A stretch of DNA of 64,000 nt from Calditrichota bacterium (lineage in GTDB: Bacteria; Electryoneota; B3-LCP): positions 2,928-66,927 of the forward strand of contig JAGVQJ010000163.1 in NCBI GenBank assembly GCA_020051775.1, in the 5' to 3' direction. Below, one piece after another: positions 20,214-39,803 of this stretch. The notes beneath the pieces are model-generated. The model made no database searches and was not told the DNA's origin. It worked only from the letters and a program-made list of their open reading frames with translations. Made by a program: the position numbers and the translations under genes. Position 1 is the first letter of the stretch, and every line of letters starts with the position of its first letter.

Positions 20214-20216
20214 AAA

Positions 20217-23603: not shown

Positions 23604-23657
23604 GAACTTTAGTCCAAGTATACCGTATCAATCCAGGAATTAATAATCGTTAGCCGG

Positions 23658-23731
23658 GGGCGATTAGCTCAGTTGGTTAGAGCGCTGGTCTCACATACCA
23701 GAGGTCACAAGTTCAAGTCTTGTATCGCCCA
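23658..23731 (+). tRNA. tRNA-Val (anticodon CAC), CCA not encoded
   Basis: Hand-folded cloverleaf. Acceptor GGGCGAT/ATCGCCC, D arm GCTC-AGTTGGTTA-GAGC, anticodon arm CTGGT-CTCACAT-ACCAG, T arm ACAAG-TTCAAGT-CTTGT, discriminator A. Confidence 0.9.
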
Positions 23732-23776
23732 CACAGCCACAGCGCCTCTAAACTTTTGCTAATCCGTAATTTCGTT

Positions 23777-24307
23777 ATGGACCAGCCTTGGACTGTTCAG
23801 ATCTTTATTTGGGAAGACCTAATCCAACAGCGTAGCGTTTGGAAAAATCAAGGTTTTTCCGTGGTTTTCACCAATGGCGTTTTTGATTTGTTGCATCGGG
23901 GGCATGTAGATTACCTTAGGGCGGCGCGGAATTTGGGCGATAGACTGGTTGTGGGGGTTAACACGGACGCTTCAGTGAAGCAATTTAAAGATCCTCGGCG
24001 TCCTATTGTAACGGAAGGCAACCGAGCATACTTATTATCATGTCTGCGGATGGTGGATGCCGTCACTCTTTTCGATCAGGATACTCCCCTGGAACTGATC
24101 AATCTGCTGCAACCGGATATTTTGGTAAAAGGTGCGGATTATTCCGAAGCTGAAATCGTTGGTGCGAAGGAAGTAAAAGCCGCCGGCGGCCGAGTCGAAA
24201 GAATTACGTTAACTGAAGGCATGTCCTCTTCGAGTTTAATAGATCAAGTTATTGAAAAATATCGCACGGATATTAATGCACCGACGCCGGGTTCTCTAAA
24301 ACCGTAA
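23777..24307 (+). CDS. hldC: D-glycero-beta-D-manno-heptose 1-phosphate adenylyltransferase (RfaE domain II, cytidylyltransferase fold)
   Basis: VVFTNGVFDLLHRGHVDYL (HxGH) and DILVKGADY motifs. The start is set at ATG 23777 because the track ORF start (23720) overlaps the tRNA. Confidence 0.85.
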   Translation: MDQPWTVQIFIWEDLIQQRSVWKNQGFSVVFTNGVFDLLHRGHVDYLRAARNLGDRLVVGVNTDASVKQFKDPRRPIVTEGNRAYLLSCLRMVDAVTLFDQDTPLELINLLQPDILVKGADYSEAEIVGAKEVKAAGGRVERITLTEGMSSSSLIDQVIEKYRTDINAPTPGSLKP

Positions 24308-24312
24308 AACGC

Positions 24313-25644
24313 ATGTTCGATCAACTCACGCAAAGTTTTGAGACCTTCTTTCGCAACTTGCGTGGTCATGGAAAGCTGACGGAAGACAATATTAAGGATT
24401 CCCTGCGGGAAGTTCGACGGATCCTTTTAGAATCCGACGTCAATTTCAAAGTTGTCAAAGATTTCATCAATAATGTTCAGGAAAAAGCCGCCGGACAGGA
24501 AGTATTAAGAAGCATCACTCCGGGGCAGCAGGTCATAAAGATCATTCACGACGAACTAGTGCGGCTGTTAGGTGAAGGATTTAGCCGTCTGGACCTTTCC
24601 GGGATGCCGCCGGTTCCGATCATGGTCGTGGGACTGCAAGGTTCTGGGAAAACCACACTGATCGCCAAACTGGGTCTGCACCTGCGTCGCAAGGGGAAAT
24701 TTCCTTTACTGGCAGCAGCAGATGTTTATCGTCCAGCGGCGATTGACCAGCTCCAGCAGTTAGGCCGACAGCTTGATTTACCCGTCTGGGCTCCCGGTGT
24801 GAAGGATCCTGTGGATATTTGCAGCGGCGCAATGAGTGAAGCGCGTCGCACTACGCGTGACGTAGTACTTCTGGATACAGCCGGGCGCCTGCATATAGAT
24901 GAGCCGATGATGCAGGAGTTGGAGCGCATTCGGGATACCCTCAAACCGCCGGAAATCCTATATATTGCCGATGGCATGGCCGGCCAGGATGCTGTCAGAG
25001 CGGCCAGCGAATTTCTCGAACGGCTCGATTTTACCGGCATTGTATTAACCAAACTGGACGGCGATGCCAAAGGCGGCGCGGCGCTTTCTATTCGTGCTGT
25101 AACTGGTAAACCGATCAGGTTCATTGGTACGGGCGAGAAACCCGACGCCTTGGAAGAGTTTCACCCCGATCGCATGGCTTCGCGCATTCTGGGGATGGGC
25201 GATATCGTCAGTCTGGTGGAAAAAGCCCAGGAATCGGTAGACCAGGAGACGGCAGAGAAATTTGCGCGTAAGGTCGCCAGAGCCGAGTTTGACCTGGATG
25301 ATTTTCTCGAACAGTTGCGGCAGCTCAAGAAGATGGGGCCGTTAGACGAGATCTTAGGCATGATTCCCGGATTGGGTAAACAGATGAAAGGCATGCAGGT
25401 GGATGAGCGCGACATGAAACGCACTGAAGCCATCATCTGTTCGATGACTCCGCAAGAGCGCCATAAACCAGGGATGATCAACGGTAGCCGCCGCCGTCGC
25501 ATCGCCATGGGATCGGGAACACGAGTGCAGGACGTTAATCAACTTTTAAACCAATACGAACAGATCAGAAACATGATGAAACGCATGGGAAAAATGAAGG
25601 GAAGGACTGGTGGCCAGTTTCCTTTCCCCATGCCTAAGTCATGA
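24313..25644 (+). CDS. ffh: Signal recognition particle protein Ffh
   Basis: MFDQLTQSFETFFRNLRG..., GLQGSGKTT, DTAGR and TKLDGDAKGG motifs, plus a Met-rich M domain. Confidence 0.95.
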   Translation: MFDQLTQSFETFFRNLRGHGKLTEDNIKDSLREVRRILLESDVNFKVVKDFINNVQEKAAGQEVLRSITPGQQVIKIIHDELVRLLGEGFSRLDLSGMPPVPIMVVGLQGSGKTTLIAKLGLHLRRKGKFPLLAAADVYRPAAIDQLQQLGRQLDLPVWAPGVKDPVDICSGAMSEARRTTRDVVLLDTAGRLHIDEPMMQELERIRDTLKPPEILYIADGMAGQDAVRAASEFLERLDFTGIVLTKLDGDAKGGAALSIRAVTGKPIRFIGTGEKPDALEEFHPDRMASRILGMGDIVSLVEKAQESVDQETAEKFARKVARAEFDLDDFLEQLRQLKKMGPLDEILGMIPGLGKQMKGMQVDERDMKRTEAIICSMTPQERHKPGMINGSRRRRIAMGSGTRVQDVNQLLNQYEQIRNMMKRMGKMKGRTGGQFPFPMPKS

Positions 25645-25673
25645 TAATCTCAAGATAACCAGGAGGCTTTTTC

Positions 25674-26162
25674 GTGGCAGTCAGACTTCGTCTAATGCGT
25701 TTAGGACGCAAAGGGCAACCATTCTATCGCATCGTAGCCGTTGATTCGCGCAAGAGGCGTGATGGAGCTTACATCGAAAAGATAGGGCATTACAATCCCA
25801 ACGCCCGCCCGGCTGAATTAACTATGGATGATGAAAAAGCGCTGAAATGGCTTCATAACGGCGCGGTTCCCTCCGATACAGTTCGTAGTTTGCTGTCCCG
25901 CCATGGCGTGATGCTGGCCTTTGACCTTGCGAGGCGAGGTCTCAGCGACGAAGAGATCACTTCCCGCGTGGCGGCGCATCGGCAGGCCTCGGAGAGCAAA
26001 TTAAAGGCGAAAGATGCGGTAACGAAACCCTCCACTGCTTCAAAACCCGCAGTGACGGTTGAAGTGCAACCTGAACCTGAGAAGGAAATTACCGTTGAAG
26101 CCCAGGCTCAGGCGCCAGAGTCAAGTACCCCGAATGAGAGCGAAAATACTCCAACTGAATAA
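25674..26162 (+). CDS. rpsP: 30S ribosomal protein S16 with an acidic/Pro-rich C-terminal extension
   Basis: MAVRLRLMRLGRKGQPFYRIVAVDSRKRRDG is canonical S16. AGGAGG precedes GTG 25674. Confidence 0.93.
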   Translation: MAVRLRLMRLGRKGQPFYRIVAVDSRKRRDGAYIEKIGHYNPNARPAELTMDDEKALKWLHNGAVPSDTVRSLLSRHGVMLAFDLARRGLSDEEITSRVAAHRQASESKLKAKDAVTKPSTASKPAVTVEVQPEPEKEITVEAQAQAPESSTPNESENTPTE

Positions 26163-26276
26163 GGCCAATCGTAGTATTTCTGCTGATAGGATCCTAAATC
26201 TTACCAGGCGCCGGAACTATTCCCCTGGGAAGATGTCTTTGGACTCGTTGTTATTTATGTGCCAAGCTGGAGATTC

Positions 26277-26522
26277 ATGATGAAAGAATTCGTTGAATTT
26301 ATTGCCAGACATTTAGTTGAAGATCCCGACCAGGTCAACGTAATCGAAGACGAAAACGAGAAGGGCTCGGTATTCAAACTCTCCGTTGGCGAACATGACC
26401 TGGGACGGGTAGTTGGTAAGGATGGCCGCACCGCCCGATCGCTCCGCACCCTGCTAACCGCGGTCAGCGCCCGCAAGGGAAAACGTGCCACCTTAGAAAT
26501 CATGAACGGGAGCAGGAAGTAA
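26277..26522 (+). CDS. KH-domain RNA-binding protein (YlqC/UPF0109)
   Basis: LVEDPDQVNV...GRVVGKDGRTARSLRTLL carries the KH GxxG motif. It sits in the conserved position between rpsP and rimM. Confidence 0.85.
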   Translation: MMKEFVEFIARHLVEDPDQVNVIEDENEKGSVFKLSVGEHDLGRVVGKDGRTARSLRTLLTAVSARKGKRATLEIMNGSRK

Positions 26523-26587
26523 AATCATCCAAGAACAAATCTGACGACAATTTCATCGAAGTTGCCAGAATCACCAAGCCCCAGGGT

Positions 26588-27046
26588 TTGAAGGGCGAAC
26601 TGAAAGTTCAAACTTTCTCTCGCAATCCTGGCGATTTAAAGCGCTACATTCATCTTTATCTTTTGGAAGCTGATGGCTCTGTTGTCAAGTTTCAGTTAGA
26701 ATGGGTGCGAGTGCACAACCGAATTGCCGTCGTCAAGCTGGCGGGGTTGAATGATCGCACTCAAGCTGAAGAATTAAAAGATCAATTACTTTGGGTACGT
26801 AAGGATCAAGTACCGGAACCTGTTCAGGGAGAGTATTTTATCAGTGATTTGCTGGGTATGCAGGTTTTTTCCGATTCGGGCGAAGTTATCGGGAAGTTGA
26901 TGGATGTATTGGAACTCCCCGCACATGACGTCTATCAAATCCAAAACGACAAACGCGAATATCTAATTCCGGCCGTCAAACAGTTTATTGTGGATGTTAA
27001 TCTTGAGCAACACATTATGATTGTGAGAATACCTGAAGGACTCTAA
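26588..27046 (+). CDS. rimM: 16S rRNA processing protein RimM (true start probably upstream of the called TTG)
   Basis: GLKGELKV, PRC-barrel C-terminus and rpsP-KH-rimM-trmD synteny. The conserved N-terminal stretch FIEVARITKPQ continues in frame upstream of 26588 with no ATG, GTG or TTG. Confidence 0.8.
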   Translation: MKGELKVQTFSRNPGDLKRYIHLYLLEADGSVVKFQLEWVRVHNRIAVVKLAGLNDRTQAEELKDQLLWVRKDQVPEPVQGEYFISDLLGMQVFSDSGEVIGKLMDVLELPAHDVYQIQNDKREYLIPAVKQFIVDVNLEQHIMIVRIPEGL

Positions 27047-27050
27047 TCAC

Positions 27051-27773
27051 TTGGATACGCCCGTGCAAGTGGATATCATCACAATCTTTCCAGGATTATT
27101 TGATTGCTTTATTAAAGATGCCATGGTCAAGCGGGCCATTATGAAGGGATCGCTTGAAGTTCGCGTTCACAATCTTAGGCATTGGACCACGGATCGCCAT
27201 CAAACGGTAGATGATTATCCCTTCGGAGGCGGTGCGGGAATGGTTCTGAAACCAGAACCAATATTCAAAGCGTTTCAAGATGTACTCGATGACCGTCAAC
27301 CTAAACCAATGGTCATCTATTTTACGCCTTCCGGCGAGCTTTTAAATCAGGATTTAGTGCAACAATTCACGCAGGAAGAGGAACTTGTCTTCCTCTGTGG
27401 ACGTTATAAAGGCGTTGATCAACGGGTCATTGATACTTTCGTAGATCGTCCAATATCCGTCGGCGACTATGTGCTCTCCGGGGGTGAATTGCCGGCAATG
27501 ATCCTGTTGGAAGCTATCACGCGGTTGATTCCGGGTGTCCTGAACGACATCGAATCAGCCTTGACGGATAGTTTTCAACATAGTCTGCTGGAAGGGCCCG
27601 TATATACGCGTCCGGAAGAATTCCAGGGGATGCAGACACCTGAGGTGCTGCTATCCGGCGACCACAAAAAAATTTCTGACTGGCGGATGGAAAAAGCTTT
27701 GGACGTCACCCGGCGTCGCAGACCCGATCTTTGGGAAAGATACTTAAAGAAAATAACGTTATCCGGATTATAA
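27051..27773 (+). CDS. trmD: tRNA (guanine37-N1)-methyltransferase
   Basis: VDIITIFPGLF, DDYPFGGGAGMV, GRYKGVDQRV and SVGDYVLSGGELPAM motifs. Confidence 0.95.
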   Translation: MDTPVQVDIITIFPGLFDCFIKDAMVKRAIMKGSLEVRVHNLRHWTTDRHQTVDDYPFGGGAGMVLKPEPIFKAFQDVLDDRQPKPMVIYFTPSGELLNQDLVQQFTQEEELVFLCGRYKGVDQRVIDTFVDRPISVGDYVLSGGELPAMILLEAITRLIPGVLNDIESALTDSFQHSLLEGPVYTRPEEFQGMQTPEVLLSGDHKKISDWRMEKALDVTRRRRPDLWERYLKKITLSGL

Positions 27774-27791
27774 ACGAACTTAAGGTTGACC

Positions 27792-28151
27792 ATGCGAAAT
27801 TTGCATTTAATCACCTCTGCGCAGCTTAGAACGGATATTCCCACGTTTAAAGCCGGAGATACCATCAAGGTTCATGTGCGCGTCATCGAAGGGGATAAAG
27901 AACGCGTTCAGATATTCCAGGGCACGGTTTTAGAACGCAGCGGCGCCGGAATTAATGAGATGTTTACGGTGCGCAAAGTATCCGCAGGTGTAGGGGTGGA
28001 ACGCATCTTTCCTCTGCATTCGCCGCGCATCGCCCGAATCGAACCGGTGCGTCAAGGCCGCGTGCGCCGGGCCAAACTGTACTACCTGAGCAATCTGCAA
28101 GGCAAGGCCGCCAGAATCAAGGAGAAAGTTACGACACCATCCGGAAAATAA
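27792..28151 (+). CDS. rplS: 50S ribosomal protein L19
   Basis: [31 protein letters not shown] is canonical L19. ATG 27792; the track begins at TTG 27786. Confidence 0.93.
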
Positions 28152-28159
28152 TTCGTTAA

Positions 28160-28325
28160 AATACATATCTTTCGATTTCGGGAAGGCGGTGAAAACCCGC
28201 TGCTGCCCCGCAACTGTATCCACCTCATGAGGTGGGAGCCAGACACTGAATCGAAATCATCAATGCCTTCGCGGGAGGGCGCCACGATAATACTCCTCGG
28301 TGCGCCGGGGAGTTTTATTTTAAAG
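28160..28325 (+). promoter_or_regulatory. Cobalamin riboswitch (compact aptamer plus intrinsic terminator expression platform)
   Basis: GGGAAGGCGGTGAAAACCCGCTGCTGCCCCGCAACTGTA matches the conserved cobalamin core. A B12-box-like AGCCAGACACTG follows. P1 pairs TTCGATT (about 28172) with AATCGAA (about 28250). Downstream hairpin ACTCCTCGG-TGCG-CCGGGGAGT (28292-28313) is followed by TTTTATTTT. Confidence 0.85.
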
Positions 28326-28353
28326 GGGCTGCTCTCTGGCAGGCCCTTTTATT

Positions 28354-28896
28354 ATGAAATACCGAAACATCACAAGAACCGCCCTTCTGATTGCCCTATG
28401 TGTGGTATTAGGTTATCTTTTTCTTCCCATCCCCAACCTCGAAATGATCACTGCGGGCATATTCGTCTCCGGTATTTGGATGGGAATACGCTCCGGTCTG
28501 TTGATCGGCTTTGTGGCGGAAGCGATTTTTTCGACTACCAACCCGATGGGTTTCCCGCCGCCGCCGCTGCTGATCGCCCAGGTCGCGGCCATGTCGCTGG
28601 TGGGATTATCCGGGGGATTGTTAAGAGGGTTGTTCGCACCCACCAACTCTGCCCAACAAAGGGAATGGCCGCTCCGCTTATTGCTGGCAATAACCGGGCT
28701 TGCCGTCACTTTGTTGTATGACTTCATGACGACCATCAGCTTCCCCCTTGCGGCAGGATTTTCATGGCAGCAAATCAGAATTGCGCTGGCTATGGGTATT
28801 CCATTCATGGCCATGCATTCGATCACCAACACGATTATATTTTCCCTGGCTGTTCCTATTATCATCAACCGGTTTCCTTCGTGGAGAAATCCGTGA
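28354..28896 (+). CDS. Small polytopic membrane protein, ECF S-component-like; putative corrinoid transporter
   Basis: 180 aa with about 6 predicted hydrophobic helices. It is the first gene after the cobalamin riboswitch. The functional call is contextual. Confidence 0.55.
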   Translation: MKYRNITRTALLIALCVVLGYLFLPIPNLEMITAGIFVSGIWMGIRSGLLIGFVAEAIFSTTNPMGFPPPPLLIAQVAAMSLVGLSGGLLRGLFAPTNSAQQREWPLRLLLAITGLAVTLLYDFMTTISFPLAAGFSWQQIRIALAMGIPFMAMHSITNTIIFSLAVPIIINRFPSWRNP

Positions 28897-30770
28897 AATC
28901 GTACTCATCCCCAACCCCGTTACTTCAATGTGCCGGGTTGATCATCGCGATGGCCTTTGGAACGATTACCGCTGCGGCTCAGATCGGCGGTTCAACTCCG
29001 CCTGTTACCGAAACACAAACGGACACCGTCCATCAGTTGTCAGACTCGCTGCGAAAAGCTCTACCAGACACGATTTGGGAAAACCCTGCACCGGTTACGC
29101 TTACTACTTTAGTCCTGAATCGCGATCAGCTCGCCGAAATTGACCATCAGGAATTCAGCGACTTTGTGCGCCTTATGCCCGGTTTCTATCCCTTGGATCG
29201 AGCCGGGCTGGCAACTCCCGCGCAAGGCTTGATGTTGGGACTTTCTGCCAAAACCCTCGATCTCAATTTTCGAGGGCGACGAATTGAGGATCACTTATTG
29301 GGCGCGCCGGATTTGAGTTGGATTCCACCAGAGGCTCTTTCACGATTGGATCTGACACCCCTGCCGCTGACTTCACCAGGCGCGCGAGTTGACGCATGGC
29401 TGAGTTCGTTGGAATCACTGCCTCCAGCCAGCCGTATATCCGTGCGAGACGGTTTTTATGGTCTGGGGACCGTTGATTTCGACTTAGCGCAAAAAATCAC
29501 TCCAGCGGTAATTCTGAATGCCGGCGGGCGTGTGACCACCTTTGAAGGCCGCTACGACAACAACGCCGGATATGGTCTAAATCTGCGAACCGAAGTTGGA
29601 TTCCGAATTTCCCCGGAACTCGGTGGTTGGGGAGGATTGATGCAGAATCGCTTGAATTCAGGTGTACCCTACGCGGCGGTGAACCACAATCGCGAGCGCT
29701 ACGATGCGGACTTCTCCTTGGCCTGGAAACAATGGTTGGGTAATGTGTACGGATACGATCAGCGGGAGACTTATAGCGGATCCGGGTCCGACCGGTGGCA
29801 AGAGTTGGGATTGATTCTGGGAACGACTCACCGATGGGGAACTGTGACCAGGGAATTTCATCTGCAGGCAGCACAAAGTCGGTGGCGGTTGAATGGATTG
29901 GATTGGGCCACCACTACCTCCGGAGGGGTTAATTCTAATCTAACTTGGACGGCCCCAAACCAGATGAATGCTGTTCTGCACCTGGGACTAGACGTTTCCG
30001 ATGATTTTTCTCCGGAACGGCATTTGGGATTAAGTCTGGAACAACCCCTATTTAACACTGTCGCAGTGTTTGCGGGAGCCACTCAACATCAAGAGAACCC
30101 AACACGCTTTGAGACGTCTGCCAATTTCCTTCCGGGGACGCATTTCCTACCCTTTGATTCCATCCTGTATCTGAATCCTACCATGATCGTTCAAGGCAAT
30201 CAAAGTCTGGTCAATGAGACCTACAACACTTTGTTTTCGGGTATACGGACAAAAAGTGAACATTTCAGCGGCTCTCTAGCAGCTTTCTGGCGACGTGTGG
30301 ACGATCCTATTGCCTGGCATGTAGAGGACAGCACGGTAGTCTCTTACAATGCTGAGAGGCGAGAGGACTACGGTTTAATGGGATGGACAGTATTTCGACC
30401 TGGGAAACGGTTGGAATTCGGAGTATCCGCATCCTGGCTTCCTCGCATAGATCAAGAAAAGCGCCTATTTCCAGAAAACATAGCTCATGCCTGGGCACAG
30501 TATAGTCAGCCGCTTATTCAGAATGATCTGCTGCTGCGTCTGCGGGTTTGGAGCGATTTCTGGGGACAGAGACAGGCGCCGACGGCTGGAAGCTGGACCA
30601 ATCTGCAGAACGATGCAATTTTGTCGGCTCGAATCAGCGCCTACATGCTGGGGGTACACTTTTTCTGGGAAGTGCGCAATGCCACCGGGAAAAGATATTA
30701 CCTGACACCCGATTTGGAGATGATGCATAAAGAAGAAGTCTGGGGAGTTGCGTGGAATTTCAGGAATTAA
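28893..30770 (+). CDS. TonB-dependent-receptor-like outer-membrane barrel with a degenerate plug
   Basis: GTG 28893 overlaps the upstream TGA (GTGA) and yields signal peptide MKSYSSPTPLLQCAGLIIAMAFGTITAAAQ. A plug-like segment (FSDFVRLMPGF...LNFRGRRIED...) is weakly conserved. A long beta-rich C-terminus follows. The track ORF start at 28764 is an overlap artefact. Confidence 0.55.
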   Translation: MKSYSSPTPLLQCAGLIIAMAFGTITAAAQIGGSTPPVTETQTDTVHQLSDSLRKALPDTIWENPAPVTLTTLVLNRDQLAEIDHQEFSDFVRLMPGFYPLDRAGLATPAQGLMLGLSAKTLDLNFRGRRIEDHLLGAPDLSWIPPEALSRLDLTPLPLTSPGARVDAWLSSLESLPPASRISVRDGFYGLGTVDFDLAQKITPAVILNAGGRVTTFEGRYDNNAGYGLNLRTEVGFRISPELGGWGGLMQNRLNSGVPYAAVNHNRERYDADFSLAWKQWLGNVYGYDQRETYSGSGSDRWQELGLILGTTHRWGTVTREFHLQAAQSRWRLNGLDWATTTSGGVNSNLTWTAPNQMNAVLHLGLDVSDDFSPERHLGLSLEQPLFNTVAVFAGATQHQENPTRFETSANFLPGTHFLPFDSILYLNPTMIVQGNQSLVNETYNTLFSGIRTKSEHFSGSLAAFWRRVDDPIAWHVEDSTVVSYNAERREDYGLMGWTVFRPGKRLEFGVSASWLPRIDQEKRLFPENIAHAWAQYSQPLIQNDLLLRLRVWSDFWGQRQAPTAGSWTNLQNDAILSARISAYMLGVHFFWEVRNATGKRYYLTPDLEMMHKEEVWGVAWNFRN

Positions 30771-32990
30771 ATGCAAGTTGAAAATCACAGATTAAAAATG
30801 CGACTGGCTATCTGGACAATCTCGATCCTGATGGTGGGAAGCCGTCTTTGGTCGCAAGAAACCACCGGTATTGAAGGCCGTGTCACCGATGCTCGAACCG
30901 GTCTCCCGGTATCTTCTGCCTTGGTGCAGATCATCCATACGGCCATAGAGACACAAACGGATGCTTCCGGCACATTTCGCTTTCTGTCTCTAACGCCCGG
31001 CAGTTACGATCTTAAATTTTCGACAATCGGGTACCGATCCCTGCAAATTTCCAGTGTCGTAACGGCAGTGGGAACTGTTTCCCGAATGGATGTACGGCTT
31101 CAACCTGATCCTTTAAATTTGCCGGAAATGACCGTCCGAGCGACCGCAGATCCAAGCGCCGGGGTACTTTCCGGAGCGAAAATAATCAGCCGAGCGGACA
31201 TCCAAGCGATCAAACCATTCGACCTGCCTGATCTGCTGGAAAAACAGGGTTTGGCCGGAGTTGTTTCCGATGGTACGCCCGGAGGCCGTCGTGCGGTAAC
31301 CATCCGGGGTAGCGCTTCCGACCAAGTTCTGGTTCTCATAGATGGGCAACCCATAAACGAGGCAGCAGATGGCATAGCGGATCTCTCGCGCATTTCGCTG
31401 GCGGAAATCTTGCAGGTTGAGTTCTATCCCCAGGCTCCAGCCATGTTAGGGTCGCAAGCGATTGGCGGAGTAATAAACATAATTACTTTAAGGCCGGGTT
31501 TCAACCAGACCAGACTGCAAGCCGGAGCCGGAGCATTCGGCAACCGACAGGGCAGCATCGCTTTGGGAAGGGTCTGGGGCACCTGGCCTCTTCTTGGCGT
31601 CTTTGAACACCGCGAATCGGAGGGTCGCTATCGTTATCGAGTCATGCCGGATGATGGCATTGACGTCTTCACTCGCAATGTCGAGCAGACCTTAGTCCGC
31701 ACCGGAGCGGATTTCCGCCGCGATTTCCTGTCTTTGAAAATGGATACTCCAGGGCTGGCGGAATTCGTCTATCGTCGCACTTTTTTGTACAGACATAACC
31801 CTGATTATCTTCCCTTGCCAGTCTATTCCCATGAAGCAGTCACCGCTGACGACCGACAGGAATTTACGTTAACCAGTAAATCCGGTGATCGTTGGTATCG
31901 GCCCACTACCGTAGCAAAATTTGAAGGGTACTCACAACAAACTTCGACAGACTACGGTCCTCAATACCCACTGTTGAATCAAGTCTCCAATTTGCGTGGT
32001 GAAGTGTACAGCGCCAAGGCGGATTGGACAATGCAAACGGATTGGCGTCAAATTGCGTTTGGAACCGGGATTCATTACGAACGCTTGTGGTCCGACAATC
32101 TGCAAGGCGGGTACGCCGGTCGCTTACACGAATTCGCATTCTTGCAAGTCCAGGGTGAACCCTTCGTCGAGAGAAAATTGCCGGCCAAGTTGGCGATTTT
32201 CACCGGCGTCCGAGCTGATCTTTATCAAAACCAACAGCCATTCATCCATCCCAAATTGGGTTTGGAAATCGGTGGGGGGGAGGCGGTCGCATGGTCATTG
32301 AGGGGTGAGTATGCAGGTGCGTATCATTTGCCCTCCTTCAATGCCCTGTTTTGGCAGGAAGATCTGCAGTCGCGTGGTAATCCCGAATTAGAGCCTGAAA
32401 GAAGCCTAAATCGCGAAATCGCCGCAAGAATCGGGTATCAAGGCCTGGAACTGGGGTTGGTTTGGTTCGACCGCCAGATCTGGGATATGATCTATTGGCG
32501 CATGGATTTTGAAAACAAATGGAAGCCATTGAATCTGCGCTCAGCGCAGGTTTATGGCACAGAAATCACTTTGCAGGGTCGGTTGGGAGAAGGGCTGGGC
32601 AGCCTGAACCTGAATGCCTCCCATCGTTGGATGCGTTCACAGAATCAATCCGGCGAACCTAATACCGATGGTATGATTCTCCCTTATCGCCCTTTGAACA
32701 CCACCACGCTTTCGTTGCAGGAAAACCTGTACTACTTCAGCACCGACTTAACGGCTCGCTGGATCAGTCGTCGTTTCACGACAGAAGCGAATACGCTCTC
32801 GCTTTCACCTTACACGGTATGGGATGCAGGATTAACAAAAATCATCAATCTCGCACCCAACAATTTCAACCTCACCTTGCGAGGCGAAGTGCGCAATCTT
32901 TTTGATCGCAGTTATCGGATCATTGACAATGCTCCTATGCCCCTGCGTGAATTCTGGATAACCGTAGCGATAGAAAATTCTACCCACTGA
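30771..32990 (+). CDS. TonB-dependent receptor (CarboxypepD_reg-like domain + plug + barrel), probable corrinoid receptor
   Basis: GIEGRVTDARTGLPVSSALV...GSYDLKFSTIGY marks the N-terminal regulatory-like domain. The canonical plug reads AVTIRGSASDQVLVLIDGQPIN...IGGVINIIT. The gene lies in the riboswitch-controlled operon. Confidence 0.8.
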   Translation: MQVENHRLKMRLAIWTISILMVGSRLWSQETTGIEGRVTDARTGLPVSSALVQIIHTAIETQTDASGTFRFLSLTPGSYDLKFSTIGYRSLQISSVVTAVGTVSRMDVRLQPDPLNLPEMTVRATADPSAGVLSGAKIISRADIQAIKPFDLPDLLEKQGLAGVVSDGTPGGRRAVTIRGSASDQVLVLIDGQPINEAADGIADLSRISLAEILQVEFYPQAPAMLGSQAIGGVINIITLRPGFNQTRLQAGAGAFGNRQGSIALGRVWGTWPLLGVFEHRESEGRYRYRVMPDDGIDVFTRNVEQTLVRTGADFRRDFLSLKMDTPGLAEFVYRRTFLYRHNPDYLPLPVYSHEAVTADDRQEFTLTSKSGDRWYRPTTVAKFEGYSQQTSTDYGPQYPLLNQVSNLRGEVYSAKADWTMQTDWRQIAFGTGIHYERLWSDNLQGGYAGRLHEFAFLQVQGEPFVERKLPAKLAIFTGVRADLYQNQQPFIHPKLGLEIGGGEAVAWSLRGEYAGAYHLPSFNALFWQEDLQSRGNPELEPERSLNREIAARIGYQGLELGLVWFDRQIWDMIYWRMDFENKWKPLNLRSAQVYGTEITLQGRLGEGLGSLNLNASHRWMRSQNQSGEPNTDGMILPYRPLNTTTLSLQENLYYFSTDLTARWISRRFTTEANTLSLSPYTVWDAGLTKIINLAPNNFNLTLRGEVRNLFDRSYRIIDNAPMPLREFWITVAIENSTH

Positions 32991-33002
32991 AAGGATCTCA
33001 CC

Positions 33003-34028
33003 ATGAAAGCACAATTAGTTCTCCTTACCTCCCTGACTCTCGGTTTGATGTTCAGCGCCTGCCAGGACAAAGATTCTGTCAACCAACCCATTACACCTTC
33101 TGACAATCCCTCTGCCTGGGTTGTCAACTCCCTTGGGGGTACATTATCAAGAGTTGATTTGGTTACCGATTCGGTTGTCACCAACGTCCTCACCTTAGGC
33201 CAGACACCCAATGACATCGTCATTTCCGGGACGACCGGTTATGTGGTTAACTCTGGAGATAACGACATCCAGATTATTGACTTACAGACCGCACAGACTA
33301 TCGGAACCATTGAACTTTATCTTGGATTGAACCCCTATTTTATAACTGTAGGCGGTGCGGGACAAGCCTTTGTAACTAATCTTTTAACAGGCAACGTCTC
33401 GATCCTGGATCTCGCCCTCAACCAGGAAATAGACACTTTGAACGTCGGAGTTGCGTTGGAGGGGATTTGTATTTATGGAGATACCCTTTACATCTCAGAC
33501 ATAAACGCCGTCAATTGGGTCTATGGCCAGGGATACGTTTATGCGTACTCTCTGCCGGGATTAGCACCTTTAGCCACCATCCCAGTCGGCACCAATCCAC
33601 AGGCCATCGTCGCCGGTCCGGATGGATTCCTTCATGTTGTATGCACCGGCGATTACGGCGCCATCAGCGGGCAGGTGCAGATCATTGATCCTGCTACCCT
33701 GACGGTGGTGGACAGCGTCACCGTAGGCGGGACTCCTGGATCGTTAGCCTTCGATTCGCAGGGGCGAGCGTTTCTGGGCGCCGGCGGTTGGGTCACGGAC
33801 GGATTCGTATTCTCGTATGACGGCATGACTCACCAGCTCTTACATGGAGCCTCCAATCCCATTCTGGTGCCAAAAGGCGCTTATGACGTCAATGCCATAA
33901 CCACCGGTAATATATTGGTTTGCTGTCATAGTGTTGACCAGGTAGTTGAAATGGATCACGACGGCAACATTTTGCAAACCTATCCGGTTGGGGATGGACC
34001 TGCGGTGTTGGCGATTTGGGAACCGTAG
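33003..34028 (+). CDS. Beta-propeller (YncE/YVTN-like) lipoprotein, possibly a BtuG-like surface B12-binding protein
   Basis: Lipobox-like MFSAC. Repeated ~40-aa blades (YVVNSGDNDIQIIDL, AFVTNLLTGNVSILDL, LYISD...). It is the last gene of the riboswitch operon, before the terminator. Confidence 0.6.
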   Translation: MKAQLVLLTSLTLGLMFSACQDKDSVNQPITPSDNPSAWVVNSLGGTLSRVDLVTDSVVTNVLTLGQTPNDIVISGTTGYVVNSGDNDIQIIDLQTAQTIGTIELYLGLNPYFITVGGAGQAFVTNLLTGNVSILDLALNQEIDTLNVGVALEGICIYGDTLYISDINAVNWVYGQGYVYAYSLPGLAPLATIPVGTNPQAIVAGPDGFLHVVCTGDYGAISGQVQIIDPATLTVVDSVTVGGTPGSLAFDSQGRAFLGAGGWVTDGFVFSYDGMTHQLLHGASNPILVPKGAYDVNAITTGNILVCCHSVDQVVEMDHDGNILQTYPVGDGPAVLAIWEP

Positions 34029-34061
34029 ACCGATAGGATAGTTTGCAGATCAGTCCAATTA

Positions 34062-34092
34062 GGCCCTCCAAATTAAAGGGGGGCTTTTTGTT
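34062..34092 (+). terminator. Rho-independent terminator ending the cobalamin operon
   Basis: Stem GCCCTCC (34063-34069) pairs with GGGGGGC (34078-34084) with one G-U pair, loop AAATTAAA, followed by TTTTTGTT. Confidence 0.65.
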
Positions 34093-34111
34093 ATAGATCC
34101 CCTGATTTCTC

Positions 34112-34173: not shown

Positions 34174-36753
34174 ATGAAGAAATTAGTCATTTCGCTCGCT
34201 TTGGCGCTACTTTCAGTAAGCGCTCTTCAGGCCGGCATCACCGGGAAAATAAGTGGAAAAATCGTAGACAGCCAAGATGGTTCACCGTTACCGGCCGTAA
34301 ACGTGATCCTGGATGGATCCTCCTTGGGTGCAGCCACCGATGCGGAAGGAGATTTCAGCCTTTTAAACCTGCCAGCCGGTACTTATACGCTTATCGTACG
34401 CATGATGGGTTATCAGGAAATGCGGTTTCAGGGTGTCCGAGTCAATGCTGATTTGACCACTTGGATAGATGTTAAACTGAATAAAACCGTACTCCAATCT
34501 GCAGAAGAGATCATCGTCCAAGTCAAACCGGATCTGTTGCGCTTCGATGTGACCAGCAAAATGTCGCTGGTGGAAGCTCGGGATCTGCAGGATCTGCCGG
34601 TCGTCAGCGTTCAGGAGCTGCTGAAGACTCAGGCCGGGTTCACTGAGGATGCTTCCGGTGAAATCCACGTTCGAGGCGGTCGCGGAAAGGAGATTCTCTA
34701 TATCGTGGATGGTATGCCGCTGAAAGATCCCATGACCGGTCAACCGGCAACTCTGATCAATCCGCAATCCGTCCAGGAGATGGAGGTTCTTTCCGGCACC
34801 TACAACGCCGAATACGGCGACGCCATGTCTGCGGTTGTAAACGTCATCACTCAAAATCCCACGGAAAAATTTAATGCGCGACTCGAATTCTTAAGCCCTT
34901 TCCTGAATTCCAGCCCCTATCGTTCTGCCGACTGGGGCGGCTCCGGCACCGATGTCATGCGCGATTCAAGCGGAACTTCCCTGTATAATGCGCCCACAGT
35001 TGAGAATCTGATTGATCCGAGCATCCCCGTACTGGGTATTGTTTCGGGATCTTTGACCGGCCCGATTCCACTGGATAAGAGGCTCGGATTTGCAATATCC
35101 AGTCGTTATCGCAAGGAAGATAGCTACTTGCCTTTCGGATATGACGTTGAGCATCAGGGACTGGGTAAGTTGCGGTTTCAGGCAACGCCCAGATTGAAGC
35201 TGACCGCCACCGGCGACCTCTCCCGCCGCCAGTATCAAGGTTACAGCCACGACTGGAGATATTTGCATGAGGGCTATCGCAGCCATGATCGGCAGTCGGG
35301 GTATTTCGGTGTACAGGCAAATCACACATTGCTGGATAATCTGTTCTATGCCGCTAATTTGTACTACTTACGACAGCACCAGAAAACCGGAGTCGGCAAC
35401 AAAACGCCCGACCAGTACATTCAGGGACAGCGTACGGGTGAGGCCTTTTATTTCGCCAACGATGATGATATTTATCAGTTGACTGATTCCTGGACTTATG
35501 GCGGCAAGGCGGACTTCAATTACCAGGGTTTTAAGGCGCATGCGTTCAAGTTTGGATTCGATTTAAAACAGCATCGCCTGGCGGACACGACTTATGTTCA
35601 GCCGTGGCCGGGAGGCGCGAATGATTCAACCAAATACAATCGCTGGGCCGACGAATATTCCGCCTATGTACAAGATAAAATCGAACTTCGGTATCTGGTC
35701 GTTAACTTAGGGTTGCGTCTGGATTATATCAACCCGCGCAGTCTCTTCTGGAGCGATCCTAAAGATCCCAACACCCCCATGACCGAAGTTGACCCGCATT
35801 ATCAGCTTTCACCGCGACTGGGATTGGCGCATCCGGTGACTGCGACGACCATGCTGCATTTCGCCTACGGACACTTTTTCCAGAAACCCAGTTTCCGAGA
35901 GGTGTATTATAACTCCCAATATTGGACCAATCCCGAAATGATGTTGGAAGTGGATTATCCACTGGTGGGGAATCCACGAGTCAAGCCGCAGAAAACGGTT
36001 GCTTATGAAGCTGGAGTCAAACAGGCGTTGGGACCCGATTTGGCTCTGGACGTCAACCTCTGGTATAAGGATGTAACGGATCTTCTGGCCACCACGGAAG
36101 TGCGGGCCTATCCCTACCACTTTGTAGTGTATGATAATGCGGATTACGCCTCAGTTCGCGGATTTGACTTAAGCCTGCACAAACGGTTCGAAGACAATTT
36201 TTCCGCCAGCTTGAATTACAGTTTCTCTGTGGCCACCGGAAACCGATCCGATCCCACTGCCGGGTACTGGGATGCTTACGCCCAAGAGAACCCGCCCAAC
36301 CGCGAAACTTTTCTGGATTTCGACCGCCGCCATGACGTGGCATTCGATCTAAACTACGAGTTCGGAGCCGGTGACGGCCCCAGAGTCGGAGAATATCCCA
36401 TTTTGGAGAGAACGGGCTTTAATCTCCTGTTGACAGCTTCGTCGGGAATGCCTTACACTCCCTACGTCGGCCCAACCGTAGATGTAGATGAGAATTCCGC
36501 ACGTATGGGTTGGACGGCCACCGTAGACATGGAATTGCGGCGTGCGCTGAAGATCACCCCACTATCTGCCACTTTGATTCTGCAAGTGAATAACCTGTTC
36601 GACGCGCAAAACCCGATGAGAGTATGGTCACGCACGGGAAAACCGTGGGATGACGGTTGGGAAGGTCTGTTCTCATCCTACGACATGCAGCGTGATCCCT
36701 CTAACGTCGGCCCGCCCCGGCTGATTCGCGCCGGCATTCGGTTGGAATATTAA
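34174..36753 (+). CDS. TonB-dependent receptor (CarboxypepD_reg-like + plug + large barrel)
   Basis: Signal peptide; GKISGKIVDSQDGSPLPAVNVIL...GTYTLIVRMMGY; plug IHVRGGRGKEILYIVDGMPLKDPMTG; C-terminal ...IRAGIRLEY. Confidence 0.85.
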   Translation: MKKLVISLALALLSVSALQAGITGKISGKIVDSQDGSPLPAVNVILDGSSLGAATDAEGDFSLLNLPAGTYTLIVRMMGYQEMRFQGVRVNADLTTWIDVKLNKTVLQSAEEIIVQVKPDLLRFDVTSKMSLVEARDLQDLPVVSVQELLKTQAGFTEDASGEIHVRGGRGKEILYIVDGMPLKDPMTGQPATLINPQSVQEMEVLSGTYNAEYGDAMSAVVNVITQNPTEKFNARLEFLSPFLNSSPYRSADWGGSGTDVMRDSSGTSLYNAPTVENLIDPSIPVLGIVSGSLTGPIPLDKRLGFAISSRYRKEDSYLPFGYDVEHQGLGKLRFQATPRLKLTATGDLSRRQYQGYSHDWRYLHEGYRSHDRQSGYFGVQANHTLLDNLFYAANLYYLRQHQKTGVGNKTPDQYIQGQRTGEAFYFANDDDIYQLTDSWTYGGKADFNYQGFKAHAFKFGFDLKQHRLADTTYVQPWPGGANDSTKYNRWADEYSAYVQDKIELRYLVVNLGLRLDYINPRSLFWSDPKDPNTPMTEVDPHYQLSPRLGLAHPVTATTMLHFAYGHFFQKPSFREVYYNSQYWTNPEMMLEVDYPLVGNPRVKPQKTVAYEAGVKQALGPDLALDVNLWYKDVTDLLATTEVRAYPYHFVVYDNADYASVRGFDLSLHKRFEDNFSASLNYSFSVATGNRSDPTAGYWDAYAQENPPNRETFLDFDRRHDVAFDLNYEFGAGDGPRVGEYPILERTGFNLLLTASSGMPYTPYVGPTVDVDENSARMGWTATVDMELRRALKITPLSATLILQVNNLFDAQNPMRVWSRTGKPWDDGWEGLFSSYDMQRDPSNVGPPRLIRAGIRLEY

Positions 36754-36773
36754 CGGACAAAGATAGAAATCCC

Positions 36774-39700
36774 ATGAAAAGAATCTTCTCCGCTGCTTCC
36801 CTGGCATTAACTTTAACACTGGCCGCTGCCGTACACGCACAGAGTCCGGACTGCAATTCCTGCCATTTAAGTCAGGGGAAAAATGCGTTACCGCCTGTAC
36901 GCCAAATCCAATCCGAAACCGATCGCGGCTACGGTGTCATGGACAAGGGTTCCCTGGGCAATATCTGCGGCAATTTCGGCATACTGTCCAATTACCACGT
37001 TTTCTTTCAATACGCCATGCACTGGCCCCGCTGGGCTGATGATTCGCATCAGTACTGCTTCGGATTCGCCCCAGTCGTCGCCGTGGCTGATAATGTGGTG
37101 GAATCCTACACCTCCATAGCCGGTAGGGACTGGGAAGCCAAAGACGGCGGTTACGGGACGCAATTTTCCGGGGATGTTCGCGCCGCGTCCGACGATACTC
37201 CCTTCCTGGCCTCCTCTGATATCATTGATACCTGGCCGATGATCGGCGGCGAACGCGCCTGGCCGGGACCTTTCCGTGGAATTCCCGGCAATCCCGATTC
37301 CGCCACCGTGCCGGGGCAATTCGCCAGCGACCGCGACGTTTGGGGTGTTTTTGATGACCATGACAACCAGATTCAACCGTTGGGTCTGGAATGCCGGCAG
37401 ATGACTTATTGTTACAATCGCTCGTATGCCGAGGATTTCATCTTCTTTGACTTGAAGTTTCACAATACAAGTACGACCACGTACGATTCCCTTTATATTG
37501 GCCATTATGGCGATTTCCGTGTGGACTACGACAATTTAGACTTGTTGAAACTGGTAGATACGGACGGTGACGGCAAGCGTGATTTCCTGATATACTGGGA
37601 TGCTGATGAGGAACCGGTTGAACCCTGGACGGTCATGGGGATGATTGGTGTGGCTATAATCAATACGCCGGATGATATCGGCGTCACCGATTTCCACTAC
37701 TTCAAACATGCTGACCGACCGACTACTGACCCCATGCAGTGGCCCATCATCAGTGGGCAGCCGGCTCTCGCACAAGCGCGTGGCATGGATCCAGCTTTAT
37801 TCTTTCACGGCGCTGATCCTCGCTTTGATGATCCGGAAAACGTGGTGTCGCATTTTCCTCCTAATCCACCCCAGGCCCCCTATGGCGGAGCGCCGTTGGA
37901 TTACTTTCTGACGACGCTGTTGCGTGACTTTGCGCCGGGGGATAGCGCTCGCTTGACTCTGGCTGTGGTTATGGGATTAGATTCTGCAGCATTATATGAC
38001 AACCTGGCCACCGCGCAATTAATGGCCTCCATGGGATTTCAAGGGTCTGGCCCTCCCGATCCTCCGATTGTGACTTTCAAAGCGAGCGATCATGAAGCCA
38101 CATTGTACTGGGATCCTAATCCATCTGAAAATTCGGTGGACGTCATCACCAACGAGCTGGATTTCGAGGGCTATAAAATATACCGCAGCGATGACCTTGG
38201 TTTGACTTGGGGGGTAGAGGTGCGGGATTACCTCGGTGTGCTGCAGGGATATGTTCCCTTGGCTATCTACGATAAAATTGACGGCATTCAAGGCGCTGAT
38301 CCAAGCGCGCCCTGGCAGAGCCTGGGGAGCGAATCAGGCTTACAGTACTCGTTTGAAGACAGCGGACTGGTCAACGGCGTGGAATACTGGTATGCGGTGT
38401 GCGCTTATGATCACGGCCTGCAAGGAACCGACCCGGAACCAAGCCTACAGAACGGTTTCGGACGCCCGGAAGTTTCAACCCATATTATCAGCGTGACCCC
38501 AGGAGTTAATCCGCAAACCTACAATCCCATTCCCGGAGGCATCTTTCTACCGCAAATGGGGATGACAATGTCTGGTTACGTGGCGCCGTCGGGACCGCTG
38601 ACATTAGGCACTGCTTTTGTCGAAGTCATAGGCGACCCTGATTCCTTAAGCGGGCACGGATACAGAATCGCCATTTCCGATTCTATGCCACATCCGGATT
38701 CGTCCTTTACGGTTCAAGGGACTGACACGATCTGGTCGTACTTCACCTCCTGGTGGGATTCAACCTGTTATAGTGTCATAGATACAACTCTAGGGGATAC
38801 GCTGATAGCCTTCCACCCCTTCTTTGTGGAAAATGCCGGGAACAGCCTGGCGGGAGAGCAACCGATTGTGGATGGGTTGCGTTTTACCGTAAAAGATGGA
38901 TCGCTCTGGTTTGGTTGGACGCTCTTCCATCAGGATTCCTGCACTTTTGATTGGTGGCGTGAGGCACGTCAGAATCCGATGGGGGAAGCTTGGATACAGG
39001 GTTCTGCATCATTCCGGCTAACGGTTGACTATGACAGTCTCAATGGCGGCTGCCACGCGCAGATTGAAGACCAATTCGGGGGTTATTATCCCGCCATCTG
39101 GGTGCCGTTCAGAGTGGAAATGATCTCGGATACTTCCAACCCCATTGACGTCGGCGATCTTACTTGGATCGTAGATTATGAGACCGGTGTCCTTGGTGGC
39201 ACCGTTCCCTTCCCCCCGAACATGTTCTTCAGCCCTGCGGGCTGGGATTTGGAACCCGGCGGCACGGGGTATAATCCGTTTGATTTCGGCAATGCCTATC
39301 CCGATGAAATCTCCTTCCGGTATTACGCTCCTACTGGCGATACGTCCATCGCCAACATCCGCACGCAAAATTTACCGGATTCACTGGGCGGCATTGCCCC
39401 TACTCAAGGCGACCAGTTCAGCTTGCTGAACGCCAGGTTGACATCCCAGCACCGCTTTGATTTCGGTACGGCTTGGCCGACGTACACACTGGATCCTACC
39501 GCTGTGAATTTAGCACAGATCAAGGTAGTGCCTAATCCTTACATCGTCTCAGCAGGGTGGGAAAGCGGCGCCGACGATCATCGTCTTCAATTTACGCACC
39601 TTCCGCCGGAATGCACCATCGAGATTTATACGGTTTCGGGCAACCTGGTCAGAAGACTACATCACCAATCGGATACAGAAGGGTATCTCTTCTGGGATTT

Positions 39701-39803
39701 GCGCAATGAATCCAAGCAGGACGTCGCCTTTGGGCTTTACGTGTTCTACGTGAAGACTCATCAGGGGCAAGAACATGCCGGCCGATTTGTGGTCATTCGG
39801 TAA
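36774..39803 (+). CDS. 1009-aa secreted protein of unknown function with one CxxCH, an FN3-like domain and a divergent T9SS-sorting-domain-like C-terminus
   Basis: Signal peptide ...AAAVHAQ, then SPDCNSCH. FN3-like EATLYWDPNP...GYKIYRSDD...GVEYWYAVCAYD. C-terminus IKVVPNPY...CTIEIYTVSGNLVRRL...WDLRNESKQDVAFGLYVFYV...GRFVVIR. Confidence 0.6.
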   Translation: MKRIFSAASLALTLTLAAAVHAQSPDCNSCHLSQGKNALPPVRQIQSETDRGYGVMDKGSLGNICGNFGILSNYHVFFQYAMHWPRWADDSHQYCFGFAPVVAVADNVVESYTSIAGRDWEAKDGGYGTQFSGDVRAASDDTPFLASSDIIDTWPMIGGERAWPGPFRGIPGNPDSATVPGQFASDRDVWGVFDDHDNQIQPLGLECRQMTYCYNRSYAEDFIFFDLKFHNTSTTTYDSLYIGHYGDFRVDYDNLDLLKLVDTDGDGKRDFLIYWDADEEPVEPWTVMGMIGVAIINTPDDIGVTDFHYFKHADRPTTDPMQWPIISGQPALAQARGMDPALFFHGADPRFDDPENVVSHFPPNPPQAPYGGAPLDYFLTTLLRDFAPGDSARLTLAVVMGLDSAALYDNLATAQLMASMGFQGSGPPDPPIVTFKASDHEATLYWDPNPSENSVDVITNELDFEGYKIYRSDDLGLTWGVEVRDYLGVLQGYVPLAIYDKIDGIQGADPSAPWQSLGSESGLQYSFEDSGLVNGVEYWYAVCAYDHGLQGTDPEPSLQNGFGRPEVSTHIISVTPGVNPQTYNPIPGGIFLPQMGMTMSGYVAPSGPLTLGTAFVEVIGDPDSLSGHGYRIAISDSMPHPDSSFTVQGTDTIWSYFTSWWDSTCYSVIDTTLGDTLIAFHPFFVENAGNSLAGEQPIVDGLRFTVKDGSLWFGWTLFHQDSCTFDWWREARQNPMGEAWIQGSASFRLTVDYDSLNGGCHAQIEDQFGGYYPAIWVPFRVEMISDTSNPIDVGDLTWIVDYETGVLGGTVPFPPNMFFSPAGWDLEPGGTGYNPFDFGNAYPDEISFRYYAPTGDTSIANIRTQNLPDSLGGIAPTQGDQFSLLNARLTSQHRFDFGTAWPTYTLDPTAVNLAQIKVVPNPYIVSAGWESGADDHRLQFTHLPPECTIEIYTVSGNLVRRLHHQSDTEGYLFWDLRNESKQDVAFGLYVFYVKTHQGQEHAGRFVVIR

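Follow-up and report, generated by a model that had tools for sequence, protein, structure and literature searches.

How can a bacterium with two membranes acquire the vitamin B12 that it appears to need when no BtuFCD importer is recognized in its genome? This question is raised by an operon of four genes preceded by a cobalamin riboswitch in a 64,000-nucleotide stretch of the genome of a Calditrichota bacterium (GTDB lineage Bacteria; Electryoneota; B3-LCP; GenBank assembly GCA_020051775.1, contig JAGVQJ010000163.1, positions 2,928 to 66,927 of the forward strand), called the window hereafter. The four genes, named g1 to g4, encode a small membrane protein related to the S components of energy-coupling factor (ECF) transporters, a divergent outer-membrane barrel, a TonB-dependent transporter (TBDT) and a beta-propeller. 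We propose, with a probability of roughly 60%, that this unit is the corrinoid (B12) acquisition operon of the organism, in which capture of the BtuB/BtuG type is followed by an ECF-type step at the inner membrane and no BtuFCD takes part. The proposal was built on gene content, folds, regulation, synteny and the absence of BtuFCD, which the analysis shows. The features of the locus, in window positions, are the following.

27786..28151, forward strand: rplS, encoding ribosomal protein L19 (PF01245, 163.8 bits); conserved 5' neighbour of the cassette, at the end of a rimM-trmD-rplS block.
28157-28268, forward strand: compact cobalamin riboswitch aptamer (Rfam RF00174, 35.1 bits against a gathering score of 31.5).
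28292-28323, forward strand: intrinsic terminator of the expression platform (terminator scan at 28292-28313; 9-bp stem with 6 GC pairs, T-run).
28354-28896, forward strand: g1, predicted CbrT-like ECF-type S component of 180 amino acids (PF12822, 38.3 bits).
28893-30770, forward strand: g2, highly divergent barrel of TBDT fold with plug and signal peptide, 625 amino acids (AlphaFold and Foldseek).
30771-32990, forward strand: g3, predicted BtuB-like TonB-dependent transporter of 739 amino acids (Pfam CarboxypepD_reg, Plug and barrel domains).
33003-34028, forward strand: g4, predicted BtuG-like seven-bladed YVTN propeller lipoprotein of 341 amino acids (lipobox, AlphaFold and Foldseek).
34061-34096, forward strand: intrinsic terminator at the end of the operon (terminator scan at 34061-34086; 9-bp stem with 6 GC pairs, T-run).

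All the elements listed by the first-pass annotation, a model's reading of the sequence that had described a riboswitch, four co-directional genes and a terminator, were recovered in place. The low RF00174 score is due to the compactness of the aptamer, which has no peripheral extension, and a genome scan identified it as the sole cobalamin riboswitch of this genome. Judging from its terminator platform, it probably turns transcription off on B12. The riboswitch and its platform lie directly 5' of the genes, and the overlap of 4 nucleotides between g1 and g2 and the distances of 0 and 12 nucleotides between g2 and g3 and between g3 and g4, respectively, leave no space for internal promoters. 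The best start of g2 is the GTG at 28893, which overlaps the TGA of g1 by 4 nucleotides (GTGA) and yields a normal signal peptide; the database gene call begins 19 codons later and the signal peptide is thereby lost.

The assembly has 4.07 Mb and is 94.7% complete. It contains 24 B12-binding domains and no CobS, so that the organism looks like a heavy user of B12 that is unable to finish the cofactor. As regards import, no btuFCD genes were present within the window, no Peripla_BP_2 protein (PF01497, BtuF-type) was matched in the 94.7%-complete genome, and the only FecCD matches were weak (41 and 21 bits), leaving no credible BtuC. The idea of riboswitch-controlled corrinoid uptake without BtuFCD, already put forward from the sequence, thus held at the level of both the window and the genome. 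Six of the genes with B12-binding domains lie on contig C94 of this genome (G000; about 17900-30900) and three on C125, and most of these proteins have 470-540 amino acids, the typical size of B12-dependent radical SAM (S-adenosylmethionine) enzymes. A CbiM gene followed by a single gene that fuses CbiQ (T component) to the CbiO ATPase was also found (G000 C139; L006:7660-9072, 9402-10037, reverse strand); given the lack of CobS, this system may serve for nickel, or for cobalt with other uses.

At the inner membrane, the candidate is g1. Its match to PF12822 exceeds the cut-off (38.3 against 30.7 bits) and covers residues 4-170, which bears out its first description as an ECF S-component-like protein. 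When its single sequence was compared with the PDB, the sole match was chain A of 6FNP (E=0.0055), the structure of ECF-CbrT, an ECF transporter for vitamin B12 from Lactobacillus delbrueckii (PMC5997447). The profile of the g1 family (32 members) likewise gave a sole significant match, CbrT (6fnp_A, E=7.4e-8), aligned near full length and including a common IPNV motif. The relationship of g1 to CbrT is a remote one. The A/G-xxx-A motif of the first transmembrane helix (TM1), known from the ECF literature to dock S components on EcfT, is kept as A10-xxx-A14 in the window; across the 32 sequences, A14 is conserved in at least 90% and position 10 is A or G. Other conserved motifs of the family are PN.E, NPxG and H..N.

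The genome also encodes the possible partners of such an S component. An orphan EcfT (PF02361, 133 bits; contig C162) adjoins truA, and the best families of two orphan ATP-binding cassette (ABC) ATPases, encoded on contigs C63 and C126, were ECF_ATPase_1 (269 bits) and ECF_ATPase_2 (227 bits). The genome yielded no BioY, and its sole PF12822 match was g1; g1 is therefore the only visible client of the orphan EcfT, which argues for an inner-membrane step of the ECF-CbrT kind over a solitary carrier like BtuM. The latter had been the parallel drawn for g1 in the first-pass annotation. However, BtuM was not matched in the PDB at E<=10 by either the g1 sequence or the family profile, and no conserved Cys that could act as a cobalt ligand of the BtuM Cys80 type was detected among the 32 sequences of the family; loop 3 of g1 reads NPMG-FPPPP, and the lone Cys, C16, lies in TM1 and is confined to the window's own family. 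With no match to BtuM, no such ligand and an EcfT in the genome, the BtuM reading of g1 was rejected; given the orphan EcfT and the two candidate ATPases, g1 is not evidently a solitary carrier. The ECF_ATPase_1-like gene (G000 C63:9326-10063, L007) lies directly 3' of a homocysteine S-methyltransferase/methylenetetrahydrofolate-reductase-like gene, a neighbour that belongs to methionine-cycle (B12-linked) metabolism.

At the outer membrane, g3 is the canonical TBDT that had been annotated, with Plug (PF07715, 57.9 bits), barrel (PF00593, 77.4 bits) and an N-terminal CarboxypepD_reg domain. Inspection located a TonB-box-like EMTVRAT at residues 119-125 (about 31125-31145), between CarboxypepD_reg and the plug. 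The best NCBIfam TBDT families were the BtuB models TIGR01779 and NF007926, with scores far under the equivalog cut-offs (136 bits, for the top family TonB-B12, against 599.7 and 122 against 836 bits), and the best PDB matches were BtuB of Escherichia coli (3e-21) followed by BtuB3 and BtuB2 of Bacteroides thetaiotaomicron. On these comparisons, g3 is classified as BtuB-like and not as a BtuB equivalog. An apparent open frame of 1173 amino acids joining g3 and g4 in one relative turned out to be two genes split by a TAG codon.

The product of g4 presents YVTN repeats and a lipobox (MFSAC) followed by an acidic stretch. Its AlphaFold model reached a predicted local distance difference test (pLDDT) value of 91.7. 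In Foldseek, the first rank corresponded to the archaeal S-layer YVTN protein 1L0Q, and ranks 2-17 were all BtuG1/2/3 and B. uniformis BACUNI_02894 (2e-19 to 3e-16, TM-score 0.74-0.79), the PDB identities of the BtuG chains being taken from PMC10404256; the next unrelated protein came after a clear gap (3e-14). The family profile agreed with this result (BtuG1 1e-19, BtuG3 3e-14, BtuG2 1e-12), and the propeller had thus been correctly recognized as BtuG-type. Consequently, the hybrid of BtuM and BtuG concepts initially suggested for this operon keeps its BtuG analogue and loses its solitary BtuM.

The g4 proteins of four families, that of the window and three others, are lipoproteins in which the lipid-modified Cys is immediately followed by acidic residues. 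Such residues resemble the surface-export signal of Bacteroidota lipoproteins. The g4 orthologues of two further families have an ordinary signal peptide and a C-terminal type IX secretion system (T9SS) type A sorting domain (26.4, 21.4 and 18.7 bits; cut-off, 23). The use of two surface routes, lipobox and T9SS tail, by one orthologous propeller fits a capture role like that of BtuG, and g4 is predicted to be located at the cell surface.

The conservation of the locus was studied in the phylum's 79 species genomes, in which g1 was present in 77, g2 in all 79 and g4 in 74, and a BtuF-type protein in only 13. The rimM-trmD-rplS-g1-g2 order was nearly universal in the phylum; of the 20 related genome loci, 19 shared the synteny, as did the majority of the metagenome loci. 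The rplS-g1 spacer of these relatives contained a cobalamin riboswitch in 11/20 genome loci and 8/16 metagenome loci (RF00174 or RF01482, 42-121 bits, stronger than that of the window; 43.6-121 bits in the genome loci). Five families, that of the window included, have the order rplS, riboswitch, g1, g2, g3, (g4) and then trpS-scpA-scpB; a sixth (f4) has a like order, with a riboswitch below threshold at 22.3 bits. The three other families carry g1-g2, or g1 alone, after rplS without a riboswitch, and in them g3-g4 lie elsewhere behind their own cobalamin riboswitch (82-112 bits). The metagenome loci followed the same rule in 16 of 16 cases: a riboswitch preceded g1 if g3 was downstream or the contig ended within g2, and there was none if g3 was absent. 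Since the riboswitch tracks g3 across families and metagenome loci, the operon of the window is a merger of two modules, module A (g1-g2 beside rplS) and module B (riboswitch-g3-g4).

Some further observations were made on these loci. The open reading frames of about 340, 250 and 265 amino acids located 3' of the cassette in relatives, which were considered as btuCDF, are actually trpS, scpA and scpB. In G017, a genome of the window's family, the propeller gene stands alone behind its own riboswitch (L068:5599-6971, 110.6 bits), away from g1-g2-g3. Two families have rplS-g1 spacers of 230-430 nucleotides without a riboswitch (L046:9564-9799 and L047:2853-3078, on the reverse and forward strand, respectively; L051:2739-3018 and L052:2560-2990, both forward), the last of them with a hairpin around 2788-2871; a permissive Rfam search of the long spacers of families f2 and f6 gave no riboswitch, and they may contain an unrecognized leader or a simple terminator. 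BtuF-type proteins concentrate where EcfT is weak or undetected (G041, G042 and G044 of f4; G058, G061, G063, G065 and G066 of one f7 genus), lineages with a clear EcfT are mostly without BtuF, and g1 is kept in both kinds. This distribution hints at the ECF module and BtuFCD being alternatives, the genomes being related and not independent. Finally, a separate cassette lies 3' of the operon in the window (34174-40859), with a TBDT-like gene (859 amino acids), a gene for a secreted protein of 1009 amino acids and a gene of 347 amino acids; the terminator separates it from the B12 operon, to which it does not belong.

In 12 of 14 unfused loci, the window among them, the start codon of g2 overlaps the stop of g1 (ATGA, GTGA or TTGA), and in the remaining two both genes are 4-7 nucleotides apart. 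All 25 metagenome loci covering that region had g1 directly 5' of g2, in two cases fused, and four phylum genomes from three families have g1-g2 as one open reading frame. A word-based search for longer, fused g1 forms found none; the fusions emerged through an exhaustive profile search with g2 against 1.84 billion representative proteins, which yielded 168 clusters at E<=1e-30. Among the best 150 of these 168 clusters there were at least 13 long forms (756-875 amino acids, in which the g2 match begins at around residue 170-270). Of ten long forms tested, nine had an ECF S-component domain at the N-terminus, and two also matched Pfam Plug and barrel. Fused genes occur too in a metagenome-assembled genome (MAG) of KSB1 and in another MAG outside the phylum. 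Examples of fusions are L041:2950-5448 (forward strand), L042:7314-9623 and L043:7329-9791 (both reverse strand), as well as the proteins P0123, P0147, P0132 and P0063.

In all the fusions examined, the signal peptide of g2 remains as a hydrophobic segment, with a small-x-small site behind it. As S components end in the cytoplasm, this extra segment would cross outward and the signal-peptidase site would face the periplasm. We therefore infer that the g1-g2 fusions are polyproteins cleaved at the internal signal peptide. A fusion spanning both membranes uncleaved was rejected because the linker between the segment and the plug, which in the fusions examined most closely has only some 15-25 residues, could not reach across the periplasm. 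Both the merger of two separately conserved modules and the coupling or fusion of g2 to the S component had escaped the first-pass annotation. The loci outside the phylum were retrieved with an alignment of four fusion sequences. In two of them (L059:535-5451 and L061:2120-6534), fused or paired S-component/TBDT genes lie next to QueH and radical SAM genes and then DUF1848, or between AIR-synthase-like and DUF364/DUF4213 genes; no cobalamin riboswitch is present in either and the substrate of these genes may differ.

The nature of g2 itself became evident from its modelled structure, as its sequence gave no match in Pfam, NCBIfam or the PDB. Its AlphaFold model, obtained with an alignment of 30 sequences (pLDDT 84.9, predicted TM-score 0.84), consists of a plug within a barrel of roughly 22 strands. 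Foldseek returned at least 309 TBDT-type matches at E<=0.001 (best 5e-26; query-normalized TM-score 0.72-0.76), and the tightest superpositions were those on E. coli BtuB (target-normalized TM-score 0.83-0.85, root mean square deviation 3.2-3.6 A). At sequence level the family profile picks up TBDTs weakly, the sole full-length alignment being with BtuB1 of B. thetaiotaomicron (6.5e-9), and Pfam Plug or TonB_dep_Rec_b-barrel are matched by 2/30 family members, that of the window not being one of them. The gene is essentially single-copy in 79/79 genomes, with conserved plug and C-terminal motifs. The second, divergent barrel of the first-pass annotation was thus confirmed; what it called degenerate is a complete TBDT fold, found in all these genomes and coupled or fused to g1.

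As for energization, in 8/16 phylum loci the invariant Asp of the plug comes a mere 18-28 residues after the signal peptide ends, too close for a TonB box with its linker to fit in between. The same distance is 39-65 residues in the window's family, unconserved and modelled with low confidence; in the window itself these are 61 low-confidence residues with no clear TonB-box motif. The more canonical fused relatives of g2 have a possible TonB box. The missing room suggests that, for a large part of its family, g2 is not a TonB-driven receptor of the conventional kind. The loops of the model are mostly very short, with three longer insertions. Family f3 (L069, G027:C2:2491000-2504800, and further genomes of this family) has its g2-type barrel away from g1, with lower scores (1e-55 to 1e-69) and in longer open frames of 700-800 amino acids; this barrel may be a paralogue of more conventional type, extended at the N-terminus.

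Several of the data obtained weigh against the operon being a corrinoid uptake system with an ECF-type step. The matches of the two ATPases are below the NCBIfam equivalog cut-offs (269 against 315 bits and 227 against 330 bits), and EcfT is weak or undetected in 12-16 phylum genomes that keep g1. With no conserved TonB box and with such short loops, g2 may not be a conventional active transporter. In addition, g1(-g2) occurs without a riboswitch in 3/9 families and 8/16 metagenome loci, and a riboswitch is also lacking from the fused forms outside the phylum, whose neighbours (QueH, radical SAM, DUF1848) are unrelated genes.

The first alternative, which is that of the first-pass annotation, dispenses with the ECF module: g1 would be a solitary facilitator in the manner of BtuM or of solitary BioY, and the trapping of B12 inside the cell would drive its uptake. 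In accordance with it are the scattered location and low scores of the ATPase candidates and the retention of g1 under a riboswitch where EcfT was not found or was very weak, for example in a genus of 9 genomes that are 87-98% complete. However, g1 shows neither similarity to BtuM nor its loop-3 Cys and conserves the docking motif in TM1, and the orphan EcfT would otherwise be left without a partner, no other S component having been found. Moreover, homologues of BtuM are found nearly exclusively where the genome has no ECF module (PMC6072759). For these reasons, we regard a solitary g1 as unlikely.

The second alternative starts from the loci that lack a riboswitch. According to it, g1-g2 would import another scarce metabolite, their control by the riboswitch would be an accident of gene order, and an unrecognized protein encoded elsewhere would carry B12 across the inner membrane. 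The specificities of S components are hard to separate by sequence, and g1-g2 stand without a riboswitch in three families and in other phyla, where their neighbours are QueH, radical SAM, AIR-synthase-like and DUF364 genes. Nevertheless, at every merged locus examined the riboswitch precedes g1 and is not placed between g2 and g3; among all solved S components the g1 profile matches only the B12-specific CbrT; the g2 profile aligns over its full length with BtuB1 of B. thetaiotaomicron alone, and the g2 model superposes best on E. coli BtuB; and no alternative B12 importer was found in the genome. The support for B12 specificity of g1-g2 thus consists of the similarity to CbrT, the shared control in the merged lineages and the absence of another importer; a different substrate seems quite improbable to us. 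Equally doubtful is that g2 is a non-transporting structural partner in the outer membrane (a platform for g3/g4 or an anchor for the T9SS-delivered propeller) left as a relic of a duplicated BtuB, since, despite its extreme divergence from TBDT profiles, its very short inter-strand loops and a TonB box that has no room in 8/16 relatives and is not conserved in the window's family, g2 travels with g1 and not with g3 or g4, stays beside g1 where g3-g4 are elsewhere, is fused to g1 and never to g3 or g4, and is maintained in single copy with its motifs in 79/79 genomes.

We therefore retain the corrinoid acquisition operon with an ECF-type inner-membrane step as the best explanation, and the following mechanism can be proposed, in which the substrate of g1 and g2, the use of an ECF module, the surface location of g4 and the cleavage of the fusions are deductions. 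When B12 is scarce, the riboswitch would let transcription run. The propeller g4 would trap corrinoid at the surface and hand it to g3, which would move it into the periplasm with TonB. There, g1 would bind it directly at the periplasmic face, so that no BtuF would be needed, and would most likely carry it inward in concert with EcfT and the two ECF-type ATPases, whose genes lie at other sites of the genome, replacing BtuFCD. Produced one-to-one with g1, g2 would most likely be a second outer-membrane corrinoid gate feeding g1; any specific role for it, be it passive, TonB-dependent in some lineages or structural, is proposed with much less confidence than the overall reading.

A bolder version of this mechanism, which must be considered rather unlikely, is that g1 and g2 form a two-membrane uptake unit of a kind not described before, composed of an S component and a dedicated barrel of TBDT fold. 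Both would be synthesized either as a single polyprotein or through coupled translation, and the barrel would be freed at the internal signal peptide. As the TonB box would have been lost in many lineages, the barrel would be gated or energized other than by TonB: g2 might be a passive plugged pore with flux pulled by a high-affinity g1, or might depend on the S component/ECF machinery. If true, this unit would be a new solution to the import of vitamins through the outer membrane, universal in one phylum and present in other lineages of the FCB (Fibrobacterota, Chlorobiota and Bacteroidota) group.

About half of B12-dependent bacteria are without BtuFCD, and their inner-membrane route is mostly unknown (PMC6072759). 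An entire candidate phylum of diderms (79 species genomes) seems to depend on a CbrT-like S component, combined with outer-membrane capture of the BtuB/BtuG type. Lipoprotein-capped TBDTs seemed exclusive to Bacteroidetes, and BtuB/BtuG-type systems were previously thought to be restricted to Bacteroidota (PMC10404256). The results also raise the question of how a TBDT without a TonB box can work. Our literature search found no account of an S component fused or coupled to a barrel of TBDT fold, nor of B12 uptake in this phylum.

Comparison with other proteins and systems places each element of the operon. By protein-language-model features (0.98-0.99), the nearest clusters to g2 were uncharacterized proteins of about 630 amino acids with Plug and Porin_10 (PF14121) domains from Gemmatimonadota, Balneolota, Rhodothermota and Bacteroidota, a similarity to be taken as a lead only; unlike them, g2 gives no match to the Pfam models Plug or Porin_10 at E<=0.05. 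As for the fusions, the FbcH cytochrome b/c1 precursor of Bradyrhizobium is a membrane polyprotein whose second half is freed by signal peptidase at an internal signal sequence. A like processing would be needed for the g1-g2 fusions, in which cleavage is suggested by the hydrophobic segment and the small-x-small sites, the protein families being unrelated. With the BtuB-BtuFCD system of E. coli, the operon shares a cobalamin riboswitch over a TonB-dependent receptor, and the g2 model superposes on BtuB; however, BtuF, BtuC and BtuD are absent and there are two barrels, one without a recognizable TonB box.

At the inner membrane, the resemblance to ECF-CbrT lies in the size of the S component (180 amino acids in g1, 182 in CbrT) and in the presence of EcfT and two ECF-type ATPases in the genome. 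The differences are the diderm host, which makes an outer-membrane step necessary, the coupling or fusion of g1 to a gene of TBDT fold and the scattering of the ECF module genes. The BtuM of Thiobacillus denitrificans (PMC6072759) is also a small protein of S-component type in a Gram-negative bacterium without BtuCDF and is linked to a BtuB-like receptor, but it has no detectable sequence similarity to g1, which lacks an equivalent of Cys80 and has EcfT in its genome.

At the outer membrane, the closest system is BtuB-BtuG of B. thetaiotaomicron (PDB 8BLW, 8P97, 8BMX; PMC10404256, PMC6143338), with the same order of riboswitch, TBDT and seven-bladed propeller lipoprotein. Among characterized proteins, the g4 model is nearest to BtuG1/2/3 and g3 to BtuB proteins. 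In contrast, the identity between g4 and BtuG is only 15-20%, no btuFCD follows, the host is outside Bacteroidota, and two families of the phylum have a propeller in which a T9SS sorting tail replaces the lipid anchor. Each part of the operon has, therefore, a known relative (CbrT, BtuB or BtuG). In the literature searched, no description was found of their combination, in which a diderm has a B12 carrier of the ECF type, a BtuBG-type pair occurs beyond Bacteroidota and the S component is linked, by coupling or by fusion, to a barrel of TBDT fold that is poor in TonB boxes.

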